DNA of 64,000 nucleotides, from contig OX597821.1 in the NCBI GenBank assembly GCA_951406725.2, positions 101,308,001 through 101,372,000 of the forward strand. Direction: 5' to 3'. The DNA comes from Octopus vulgaris. Lineage: Eukaryota. The first letter of the stretch is position 1. The number at the start of each line of letters is the position of its first letter. Positions 7,139 through 58,652 of this stretch are shown one piece after another. The translations under genes were made by a program, and so were the position numbers. Under the pieces are notes generated by a model. The model saw nothing but the letters and a program-made list of their open reading frames with translations. It was not told the DNA's origin and did no database searches.

Positions 7139-7741
7139 TTATATGAAATAAATGTATTATTTATAAGAATCCATCTATGTATCCAACCATGCCAGCATAG
7201 AAAACAGGCATTAAATGATGATAATTAAATGATTATTTGTAAATAACGATACATAAATGAGGATAGATAACTGAAAATGTTTAACATTCTTTTTGCATTT
7301 CTGTGTCTACTAGAGATATTTTTTAGCTCACTTTGAATTTAACCATATATTAATTTGACTGATATTTTCTGTAGCTAAACATGCTGGCACAACATAAATG
7401 ATTGTCAGTATTTTACAGTGTAATCACCAATTAAAGATGTGGTTTTCTCCATTTTTATTTTTGTCATCTTATACCCCAAATTTCTTGAAATTCTTCTAAA
7501 TGATATCTGGATTGACTTGTCATACATAACAAATTACCTTGGATGTTTATTCTACTTGCATTTATTGGTATCTGATTGCTGGATATAGTTAACCAAATTC
7601 ATGTAACACTGAGTGCTTTATAGATATCTGCTTAGATTTTTCAATCCCTTTTACTTCTTCTTATATATATATATATATATATATGTAGGTCCCGGGTTGA
7701 TTCGGGGTTAACCACAGTAAATTAATTTATTATATAGAAGG

Positions 7742-7792
7742 AGCTTCTACAGGACTAGTACTGTTTCATTCAAGAGAAATCTTCAGGAAGCT
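7742..7792 (-). ncRNA. Type I hammerhead ribozyme (mirror copy)
   Basis: Exact reverse complement of 7911-7961. Confidence 0.75.
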
Positions 7793-7910
7793 ATTTAACA
7801 AGAATTGTATTAGCATTTATACAGGTTTAAAGGAGTGGTTTAAAGGTCCCCCACCACCACTCCTTTAAACCTGCCTAAATGTATAAATGCTAATACAATT
7901 CTTGTTAAAT

Positions 7911-7961
7911 AGCTTCCTGAAGATTTCTCTTGAATGAAACAGTACTAGTCCTGTAGAAGCT
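7911..7961 (+). ncRNA. Type I minimal hammerhead ribozyme
   Basis: Stem I agcttc/gaagct; core CTGAAGA 7917-7923; short stem II ttc-tctt-gaa; GAAA 7936-7939; stem III acag/ctgt around tactagtc; cleavage triplet GTA 7953-7955. Confidence 0.8.
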
Positions 7962-7982
7962 CCTTCTATATAATAAAATAAA

Positions 7983-8025
<43 letters not shown>

Positions 8026-11561: not shown

Positions 11562-14500
11562 CAGGTGTGGGGAAAACCCAACTCGCATGCACAATTTTGC
11601 CTGCTGGCTGATATACTCATGTACAAAATAAAGTAAATTTTTCAATTATAAAATGTATACAATACTCACATGCCTATTTGCAACATAGGTCATGTTTCCA
11701 CTATGACTTAAAAGGGATCAGACTCAAACAGAAATTGTCCAGTAATTGCCATTTGAATGGAAATTTTGATTTTACTATAAAACACATATTGCTAGGTTTG
11801 TACCACTCCCTTGAAACCCAACTACACTTTAGCTGAGAAAACTGGAAATATATTGCATATCTCAAAATAATTTTTATATGAAACGAAAGCTGAAGGATTG
11901 TAGAAGATACTGTGTAAAAATTATATCCAAGAACCCCAAGTATTTAAATTTTCCTCCCTATTTCATTTTTCACGTTTTTATGAAAAGAAGTCTCCAAAAT
12001 TGATACTCATTCTCTTTCTGTCAATTGAAAAGCAAAAAAATATTTTAAAATCTATTAAGAATCAAAAACAAATTGGTAAAGCTTCATCAAAACAGAAACT
12101 ATTAATTTAGTGCTTTGTGAACAGGATTATAAAAAATATTACTGACTTCTTTTTCTGAAAAAGCAGTGAAAAATAACTTTTTTCAAAGGGGTGTCACATT
12201 TCTGCTATCAGTTGGGGTCAAGAAGGTTAGCAGGAGTTACTTTCATCTGCCATCAGTTTATCAGTTATTGTCATTCCCTACCCACTTGCTTGTCAACACC
12301 TGTGTGGACAAGGAGGGAGAGAAAAATCAAGTTAAACCTTGCAGAACCAAACAATATCTAAATTTTTTGCCGATTTCTATTTTTCACTATTTTTACAACA
12401 CTAAGTGCATGCATTATGACTATGAGCCAGTTGGCTTTTGTTTTTCCAAGGCAGCAGTAATAACAAAAAATTCCAAAAGTGATAATATAAATTTAACCAG
12501 TTTATAACTTTGTTAAATCAATTTTTCAATACCCTTATCAATATGGCAAGTGATTATTAAAATCCTAAAAAAAGAAGTACTGGTGAATGTGCTTTGTTTG
12601 AGGAAAAATGGACTGAGCTTTATTTTTATATTAAAATAGATAACAAATGCATTTGTTTTAGTTGCAACGAACAGGTAGCAATTGATAAAAAATATAATAT
12701 AGAGAGGTATTTTGTGAGTAAGCATAAGACCTATGAAAAGTTAAAAGAATCTGAACATTTAGACATGATGACCTCCTTAAAAGAAAATCTGACCAGAAGA
12801 CAAACTTTTTTTTAAAAGGCCAATTCTTGAATGTGAATTAGTTACTTGAGCCAGTTATGTGGTGTGCAAAAATATTGCTAAAAAACTCAATCACATAGTG
12901 ACAGAAAATTTGTGAAAGAATGTAACCTTACTGCTGCTGAGAATATATGCCAAAAAACCTTTGTTTGGAAACATTAGCTTCTCAGGAAGAATTGTTTCTG
13001 GTCATATTAAAGATATTGTTGATGACATTCAAAATTCTCTAAAATCTGATTCAGCAAAATTCGTATTGTATTCATTAGTTATTGATAAGACAACTGATAT
13101 GTTTAATACTGCTCAAACGGCAATATTTATACATGGAATAACTGCAAAATTCAGCATTCAGGAAGAATTTCTTGCCTTGAAATCAATGCATGGAACAACT
13201 AGAGATGAAGATTTATTTCAAATGGTCAGCTCAGCCTTAAAGGATTTTGATTTACCATATGAAAAAATGAGTGGTCTTGCTATAGATGGCACTCCATCTA
13301 TGGTAGGTTGTGAAAAAGGGTTCATAGCTCTGATTAAGAATGAATTTAAGAAGCGTCTTTTGGATCCGAAAACTTTGCGTGTTACTGCTTTATTCACATG
13401 GAAAGTTTATGTGCAAAATCTCTCAAAGCCAAATATGGGGATTTATTGTACTATTGTGAAGTTAGGTGATTAAGTAAGGCCCAAATGCTTAAGCAATTTT
13501 TATGAACTGTAGGAAGAAGTGACATTTTTATGGATATTAAAGGTGTTCTATTATAGAACAGGAAGATAAAAAATTTCAAAGTGATTTAGCATTTTTAGTC
13601 ATTTAAATAATTTGAACTTGAAACTACAAGGCTCTAATCAGATAATAACCAGTTTGCTTTCTCATATCAAAAGCTTTGAATCAATGCTTCATTATTTATC
13701 ACACAAGTGAAAGGAAAGTGCTCCACTCATTTTCTGAAACTGAGCAAACTAAATCCTGAATCAAAAAAGGAATACCCTGATGAGTGTGAAAGTCTTTTGA
13801 AGAAATTTGAAAGTAGAGTTGAAGATAAAATCAAACTACATGCTTTTGAAACACCTTTTGATATGTGCCCTGATGAGGATCCAGATTACTTACAATTAGA
13901 ATTAATTGATTTCCAGTTAGATAACTTATTAAATCAAATTATAATAATCTGTCTTTATTGTACTTTTACAAATCCATCAATCCTGAGAAATTCCCTGCTT
14001 TACATAAAAATGCCTTGAAATTCACATCTCAGTTTTCAATAACTTATCAACGTGAGCAATTTTTTTCCAAATTGAATTAGGCAAAAAAATTGTCTTCGTA
14101 CCAGACTTACAAACGAAAACCTGAGTAATGAACTAAGAATAGCAGTTTCTTCAAAAACCTGTGATATTCCTAAACTTTCAAAAAAAAAAAAAAAGAAAAA
14201 AAGCAGTTTCATCCCTCTCACTAAGATAAATTTGTTTAAAAATGTCATTTACATCTAGTGTTATTTAGATATTAATGTAATTTTTCAAAATTAAATTCAG
14301 TCTGTGCATGACCATTATGATTTCTCCAACATTAGGATAGCTACATTTTGAAAAATATAAAATACCTCATAAGTAATATAAAGTCTTAAATTCAGTGGCA
14401 GTGTTAATGAAGATGTTAAGCATTAATTTAATGTGTTAAACTTGTGTTTATTGAATTATACATAGATATATACAAGATTTACACAGATACAAGAGTCCAA

Positions 14501-58233: not shown

Positions 58234-58652
58234 AAAGGCGGCAAGCTGGCAGAAACGTTAGCACACCGGGCGAAATGCGTAACCGTATTTCGTCTGCTGT
58301 TACGTTCTGAGTTCAAATTCCGCCAAGGTCGACTTTGCCTTTCATCCTTTCGAGGTCGATTAAATAAGTACCAGTTACGCACTGGGGTCGATATAATCGA
58401 CTTAATCCGTTTGTCCGTCCTTGTTTGTCCTCTCTGTGTTTAGCCCCTTGTGGGTAGTAAAGAAATAGGTATTTCGTCTGTCGCTACGTTCTGAGTTCAA
58501 ATTCCGCCGAGGTCGACTTTGCCTTTCATCCTTTCGGGGTCGATTAAATAAGTACCAGTTACGCACTGGGGTCGATATAATTGACTTAATCCGTTTGTCT
58601 GTCCTTGTTTGTCCTCTCTGTGTTTAGCCTCTTGTGGGTAGTAAAGAAATAG
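58234..58652 (+). mobile_element. Young SINE family C with a tandem 184-bp duplication of its body
   Basis: Head aaggcggcaagctggcagaaacgttagcac; units 58285-58468 and 58469-58652; TSD agattaac at 58226-58233 and 58651-58658; CpG-rich. Confidence 0.9.

Follow-up and report, generated by a model that had tools for sequence, protein, structure and literature searches.

A foldback with two hammerhead ribozymes in a (TA)n tract

How does a perfect inverted repeat with a hammerhead ribozyme (HHR) in each arm come to lie in a (TA)n tract of an octopus genome? The locus is part of a 64-kb stretch of Octopus vulgaris DNA, analysed as a whole and referred to here as 'the window', and it bears on a wider problem, since the origin of the inverted repeats and of the one-sided tail of Penelope-like elements (PLEs) is stated as open in the accessible parts of PMC8557442 and PMC11167929. 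The 98-nt arms (7726-7823 and 7880-7977) are exact reverse complements, as a preliminary description of the window had reported, and their match reaches 7722/7981 at 99%. A strict descriptor of the type I HHR matched both arms and nothing else in the window (core at 7917 and GUA ending at 7955 on the + strand; 7786/7748 on the − strand) and gave 0 matches on 60 block-shuffled windows, which bears out the earlier claim of such a ribozyme in each arm. In the + strand HHR (7911..7961), stem I is formed by 7911-7916/7956-7961, the core runs from 7917, stem III comprises 7939-7942/7951-7954 and cleavage is predicted after 7955; in the − strand HHR (7742..7792) it is predicted at 7748/7747. We number positions from this predicted cleavage site, with +1 the first base 3' of GUA (window 7956). 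A TATAAA stands at 7882..7887 (+), 29 nt upstream of 7911, the position at which ~1,300 sister arms stop and the putative capped start, and another at 7816..7821 (−), 29 nt upstream of the putative transcription start at 7792 (−45).

The 51-nt HHR motif has a minimum free energy of −8.5 kcal/mol, against −7.3 kcal/mol for the active fold, and shuffled sequences fold as well as 7905-7970 does (z −0.28). The duplex of the stem III palindrome is predicted at −15.2 kcal/mol, and a pair of copies, folded together, takes the form of a dimeric hammerhead (−29.4 kcal/mol), in keeping with the proposal of a dimer-type ribozyme with a palindromic stem III. Among the arms of the family described below, the common HHR variants lie in core position 7 and the loops. 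An Rfam search, which the preliminary description had recommended, went against it, with no hammerhead match either at the gathering score or at E≤10.

The complete insert (7684-7985; predicted fold −199 kcal/mol) is larger than first reported, and two of its parts had been overlooked: a 41-nt 'tail' on the left arm only (7684-7724, − strand), which ends at the position that we call E1 (+93) and has lost 29 nt of a 70-nt tail between two AGTAA, and a 56-nt spacer between the arms, which is mostly further element sequence in both orientations. From left to right, the (TA)n target (7662..7684) and the tail are followed by the E1 arm of the pLTR (7725..7838, −; it extends upstream as far as about −100 and has lost a little sequence at 7823/7824), the inversion junction joining the two arms (7839..7845), the E2 arm of the pLTR (7846..7977, +; from about −110 to E2 at +22/+23) and, on the right flank, a short A-rich filler with the (AT)18.5 target (7978..8022). 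The window copy itself has no ORF and carries private deletions. We rejected a one-off assembly artefact as its source, as the same form recurs hundreds of times in the genome, and the join at the HHR edge is also found in contigs of an independent public run (X16). On its own, the window copy is an ordinary truncated insertion. Elsewhere in the window lie a 185-aa frame (12916-13473, +), which we take to resemble a decayed hAT/GTF2IRD2-type transposase, and a SINE-like repeat (58285-58652; two tandem 184-bp copies, 95%).

The foldback and its element family

A search of the genome (2.8 Gb, 227 contigs) with the window arm gave 881 candidates, many of them inverted pairs 2-9 kb apart; the 40 arms that were scored are 91-100% identical, which supports the youth claimed for the element. 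The same arms bound ORF-bearing elements of 2-9 kb, so that the PLE origin stands while the label of an ORF-less derivative falls: the longer copies are built of tandem ~5.2-kb units that include an ORF and an extended 3' UTR of low complexity, and natural intact 713-aa ORFs (in L084 and L188) combine a reverse transcriptase (RT) with a C-terminal GIY-YIG endonuclease. The 713-aa protein has 766 homologs, the best of them ~40% identical, with which its YRDD and YIG motifs were aligned; the RT/GIY-YIG call is one of motifs, a Pfam search with this protein and that of a second family (family B) having returned nothing significant.

According to the accessible parts of PMC8557442, PLEs of the Hydra clade have an RWK motif, DKG changed to DKT, a CxCx5C linker and no CCHH in the endonuclease, together with a type I HHR, a preference for insertion in (TA)n and a length generally <3 kb. 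Here, P0001 carries RWR and DKT (RW[KR] is present in 119/121 and DK[TS] in 120/121 proteins), the linker CNCPDKTTC (CxCx5C, with the five-residue spacing in 115/119 motif-bearing proteins), CDLC (CxxC) and CMH (CxH), and CCHH is absent, by eye, from the endonuclease of the 713-aa protein. The family thus has the single RT + GIY-YIG ORF, the RWK/DKT and cysteine motifs, the type I HHR and the (TA)n target of the clade; it departs from the clade in size, a descriptive trait, with a unit of ~5.2 kb, because of the long low-complexity 3' UTR, and of ~3.4 kb in family B. Judged by its sequence, the window foldback comes from a young autonomous-type Hydra-clade PLE, of which it is an inverted copy that has lost the 5' part, and the suggested retrozyme-like non-autonomous family gives way to a truncated copy of a family with a 713-aa RT + GIY-YIG ORF. 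The family is new within this known clade, and its HHR differs, by eye, from all those in File S2 of PMC8557442, as far as that source was accessible.

Family B comes from the same genome and served as a comparison; its protein is 42% identical over 707 aa to that of the first family, its HHR is its own and different, and many of its 727-aa frames are intact (L224-L236, L242-L247, L251). Most young copies of the first family have a broken reading frame. Among the matches listed (162 total; L040 6120-6160), 74/100 copies have a C-run that is one base short, which breaks the frame between the RT and the thumb/endonuclease, and 21 are in frame. A broken donor seems to be the main source of the youngest burst, with help in trans or slippage. 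A clade-wide programmed frameshift was considered and rejected, since 118/121 proteins continue across the motif and family B has an intact frame. An older subfamily has the same ribozyme with other upstream sequence (C1 matches, e.g. 9348553, 85569034), one short foldback sits in the (TA)n of the element's own 3' UTR (L040 5023-5260), and a metagenome scan for related loci confirmed none.

Two fixed ends bound the insertions

A pattern for the tail has 2,795 matches in the genome, and 98/100 among those listed end at E1 (+93) in (TA)n, in agreement with the (TA)n targeting that had been proposed; ~2,800 copies share this single end base. A second pattern, which leaves out the commonest continuing form, has 2,458 matches, and 89/100 among those listed end at ~+23 (E2), 70 nt upstream of E1, in an AT-rich target. 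Within 12 kb of 100 E1 ends we found an inverted E2 in 64/100 vs a same-strand E2 in 6/100, which extends the reported inverted pLTR to the family; most E1-ending copies have an inverted partner arm that ends at E2. The genome-wide comparison that the preliminary description had proposed shows many family copies, inverted pairs, (TA)n ends and linkage to an RT + GIY-YIG ORF. We fetched 20 of the 36 unpaired E1 ends: the partner arm was degenerate in ~9, another 5 stood as short single arms, and the remaining 6 extended beyond the fetched sequence. Arm lengths range from ~20 nt to kilobases across the family and are independent between the two arms of an insert: the longer can be the E1 arm (L030, L033, L037) or the E2 arm (L074, L078), and some inserts have an E2 end only (L252, L253). 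Family B repeats the pattern, with E2 at +37, E1 at +108 and a tail of 71 nt. In our reading, E1 and E2 would be the pair of sites at which reverse transcription begins, both of them used in a single insertion. The subfamily letter agrees between the two arms at 47/48 loci, which fits one template and a hairpin equally. At L114, L255 and L082 the arms of one insertion differ at the subfamily letter or the C-run, which could reflect two templates or RT error.

About a quarter of the arms stop at −45

The genome holds ~5,300 ribozyme-bearing arms, and roughly a quarter of them (~1,300) end exactly 45 nt upstream of the predicted cleavage site, 29 nt behind TATAAA. Paired inserts of 198-202 bp (18/64) have the length expected of a 138-nt and a 68-nt arm with AGCT in common. 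A turn ≤16 nt from the 5' edge of the HHR is seen in 719 foldbacks, and among 50 of these turns, sorted by hand, 18 are perfect palindromes, a single base is missing from 14, the arms are separated by a spacer in 6, and 12 are of other kinds. The other AGCT, at +3, has no such end cluster among 60 loci. Our greedy arm walker halts early at small deletions, and its values of +1, +4 and some upstream positions are artefacts.

Directly after −45, 1,382 arms carry a non-A base (the pattern behind this count excludes A, so A-starting ends are invisible to it). Among 100 of these listed, 41 are perfect AGCT palindromes and 5 are the older subfamily's own sequence; the remaining 54 ends carry C in 46, T in 5 and G in 3 cases (p 5e-15 against 1/3; junction letters tallied by hand). 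Among these 46 are all three single arms that are joined straight to (AT)n at −45, to which no hairpin artefact applies; C is found besides on 11/12 ends of the spacer junctions (6 of 50 listed) and in one X16 contig. Reverse transcriptases can copy a cap as C. The untemplated C marks a physical RNA end, and it would be the copy of a cap; many of the C ends could also be microhomology to a C of the partner arm, and foldback turns are sites at which long-read assemblies can err. The ends point to a putative transcription start at −45, capped and driven by the TATA motif, on the base that opens stem I of the hammerhead.

In family B, 657 foldbacks turn ≤30 nt upstream of the HHR core, and the arms of the 50 listed stop at or just inside CC|ATTCT (−47), a sequence that we take to be initiator-like, 27 nt behind TATAGA. 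Nine loci reach −47, and the next letter is C in 7 of them, unambiguously on both arms in L251 only. Full-length copies of the first family mostly run upstream past −45: among 27 listed, only L208 starts there, and its E2 arm is short and inverted. L193 and L255 bear the marks of run-off and then of a jump to another template. For the copies that extend past −45, read-through RNA, circles or clean jumps are possible; the G scar at −46/−45 of an LTR-like strand transfer had 0 matches in long copies.

Two other readings of these junctions have to be weighed, and we regard each of them as unlikely. In the first, one cDNA or antisense RNA folds back and is copied back, and −45 is a convenient AGCT palindrome. 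Such self-priming has been proposed for rotifer Penelope, with antisense RNA (PMC3846280, in its accessible parts), and here a hairpin of 1-2 bp could account for the junctions that have lost a single base (14/50 listed), the two arms are of nearly the same length in some long pairs (L070, L082), the arms share their subfamily letters at all but one of the 48 loci, and a small group of turns falls at the stem III palindrome (L096-L098). However, loop-less perfect palindromes (18/50 listed) require two strands, C stands independently at both arm ends of the spacer junctions, and longer palindromes nearby are not the main turn. The E2 arm, moreover, reaches −45 in L108, L110 and L111, yet an E2 cDNA lacks the tail of the other arm, and inserts with E2 only exist.

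In the second, about equally improbable, the arms stop at −45 because the RNA is processed there, because a protein is bound or because of RNA structure at the 5' edge of the HHR, and twin priming may hold all the same. The stop coincides with the base that begins stem I and is close to the end of a weak hairpin, the start is placed there from DNA ends, contigs of the public runs gave neither start sites nor circular joints, and D. virilis Penelope has a TATA-less internal promoter (PMC2377424, in its accessible parts). Such a stop does not sit well with the letters at the ends, as those at +1 are mostly A (14/17) and those at −45 mostly C, or with an upstream hairpin that varies between subfamilies. 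Nor does it suit family B, whose stop precedes stem I by several nt and falls on the presumably initiator-like sequence with TATAGA at −27.

Inserted templates and ribozyme cleavage

Does the ribozyme cut the RNA that is inserted? A non-templated base after +1 was found in 44 arms, made up of 16 point changes, 11 stem I homology joins and 17 clean ends, and the control position −5 gave ~16 ends among 33 matches. We therefore rejected an arm-end peak at the cleavage site, where 17 clean ends and 11 stem I joins vs ~16 control ends are near background, and because of this likeness to the −5 control the inserted templates would mostly have been uncleaved by the ribozyme. G deletions at +1/+4 (6 and 11 of 208 arms; ~10/100) were likewise rejected as cleavage scars, because those that could be placed fall within short palindromes, in which long reads are error-prone, and short-read contigs are free of such gaps. 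Three loci with both arms ending at +1/+2, and also L076, hint at rare cleaved templates. In the RNA predicted from −45, a competing hairpin covers the cleavage site without any inverted arm. At L249, two arms, each ending at the cleavage site, enclose ~170 bp of captured, unrelated repeat sequence.

Two loci hold tandem arrays, L182 (C2:64628-64632 kb) with 277-bp units and 14 HHRs, and L183 (C5:37481-37489 kb) with 333-bp units and 24 HHRs. Their units comprise TATA, HHR, tail and ~100 nt beyond E1 and break near the same ORF position, and each array changes orientation once and has E1 and E2 as its outer ends in (TA)n. No second locus with 277- or 333-bp units was found among the matches listed. 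Such E1/E2-bounded arrays would imply that multimers of a small RNA, possibly a circle, had been inserted by the PLE enzyme.

The hairpin RNA and a hint of editing

Both window arms keep TATAAA and the putative start, so any promoter-driven RNA of the window copy would start inside one arm, point outward and lack the other arm; by prediction, the hairpin forms only from read-through RNA. The dsRNA hairpin of the preliminary description therefore survives in part: a read-through transcript would fold at the −199 kcal/mol given above, and a promoter-driven one would be without its second arm. For its proposed role as an ADAR substrate there is a hint in the family at large. Contigs of four runs that we guessed to be RNA have sense-strand A>G changes, often after U (L040 7769, 7808-7833, 7871), and in all four the UAG at −9, in the stem III loop that is needed for the dimer, shows A>G; G at −9 is absent in 205 genomic arms. 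This family-level signal is weak, and in three larger runs of unknown kind the sense-strand A>G changes are absent; individuals and thresholds differ between runs. The pattern hints at A-to-I editing of the family's foldbacks.

It is highly improbable that the foldback was selected for its hairpin, be it as a self-inhibited ribozyme switch or as a self-propagating non-autonomous family: the stability of the read-through hairpin and the A>G changes of the four RNA-guessed runs, stem III loop UAG included, would suit this, but the three larger runs are without them, arms vary from ~20 nt to kilobases as insertion by-products should, heterogeneous junctions mark each short foldback as an event of its own instead of a copy made from one master, TATAAA is missing from the 201-bp class, the window copy has its private deletions, and the HHR region of RNA from −45 is predicted to be blocked in cis already by the competing hairpin.

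A proposed twin-priming model

Twin priming is the probable origin of the foldback, as an inverted insertion of a young Hydra-clade PLE that lacks its 5' part. A presumably dimeric RT-endonuclease would nick both strands of (TA)n, two cDNAs would start on the element RNA, one at E1 and one at E2, and their 3' ends would be joined to each other. Many cDNAs would run off the putatively capped 5' end of an uncleaved RNA, and two such run-off cDNAs could anneal via their terminal AGCT to give the 201-202-bp foldbacks. The arms of the window copy extend ~55-65 nt past −45, so their template would be the 3' pLTR in an RNA that was long or had arisen by read-through. With less assurance, we lean towards the larger reading, in which the inverted pLTR with its tail is the twin-priming footprint of a dimer acting on both (TA)n strands, the HHR stands at the capped 5' end of the mRNA, about a quarter of the arms are strong-stop cDNAs with the cap copied as C and annealed end to end, and the same ends bound the retrozyme-like arrays.

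In the literature searched, whose scope excluded subscription papers and Repbase reports, we found no twin-priming or 5' run-off model for PLEs; the supplements of PMC11167929, which map genomic ends, may affect the novelty of ours. Approximately 1,400 base-precise junctions from two young families point to a single answer on the inverted repeats of PLEs, and the model predicts an exact start site, two primer sites, a cap-dependent C and AGCT annealing. The data suggest that the ribozyme rarely cuts the RNA that becomes inserted. The family has spread thousands of near-perfect hairpins across an animal genome.

Comparison with known systems

The proposed steps recall the twin priming of L1 and the minus-strand strong-stop of LTR elements, in which, respectively, both target strands prime and a cDNA runs off a capped 5' end. 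In L1, however, the two cDNAs copy different parts of the RNA, whereas they overlap here, and no tRNA primer or RNase H is involved here.

A biochemical parallel is Poseidon PAc of Anolis, known to us from the accessible parts of PMC11167929: in vitro it cuts and extends both strands, its RT starts at the two ends of the tail, it is predicted to be dimeric and HHR cleavage is not needed. It shares with the family, as modelled here, two RT starts that bound the tail, an AT-rich target, the extension of both strands and an uncleaved RNA template. Poseidon PAc belongs to another clade, however, and those parts of the study leave the steps after priming open, do not assign the sites to the two arms of one insertion and describe no 5' run-off.

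With the Hydra-clade PLEs of PMC8557442, in its accessible parts and including Hydra-1_Obim, the family shares the single RT + GIY-YIG ORF, the motifs, the type I HHR and (TA)n, and in many Hydra HHRs of that supplement, as here, stem II is short and flanked on both sides by a U, and stem III is palindromic. It differs from them in its ~5.2-kb unit with a long microsatellite-like 3' UTR, against <3 kb, and in a tail of 70 nt, against 30-40 nt. Non-LTR retrozymes, as the accessible parts of PMC7229834 and bioRxiv 10.64898/2026.07.22.740005 describe them, are PLE-derived direct tandem repeats of 170-400 bp with a type I HHR in each; the L182 and L183 arrays fit this description, whereas the window copy is an inverted pair only, outside the tandem-repeat class of PMC7229834. 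Finally, the Penelope copies of D. virilis and Adineta (PMC2377424 and PMC3846280, in their accessible parts) resemble those here in an inverted 5'-truncated copy, a one-sided tail and a palindrome at the junction, and the rotifer pLTR likewise has TATA/Inr-like motifs (PMC3846280). There, these features were explained by self-priming on an antisense template, whereas the junctions analysed here favour two sense-templated cDNAs.
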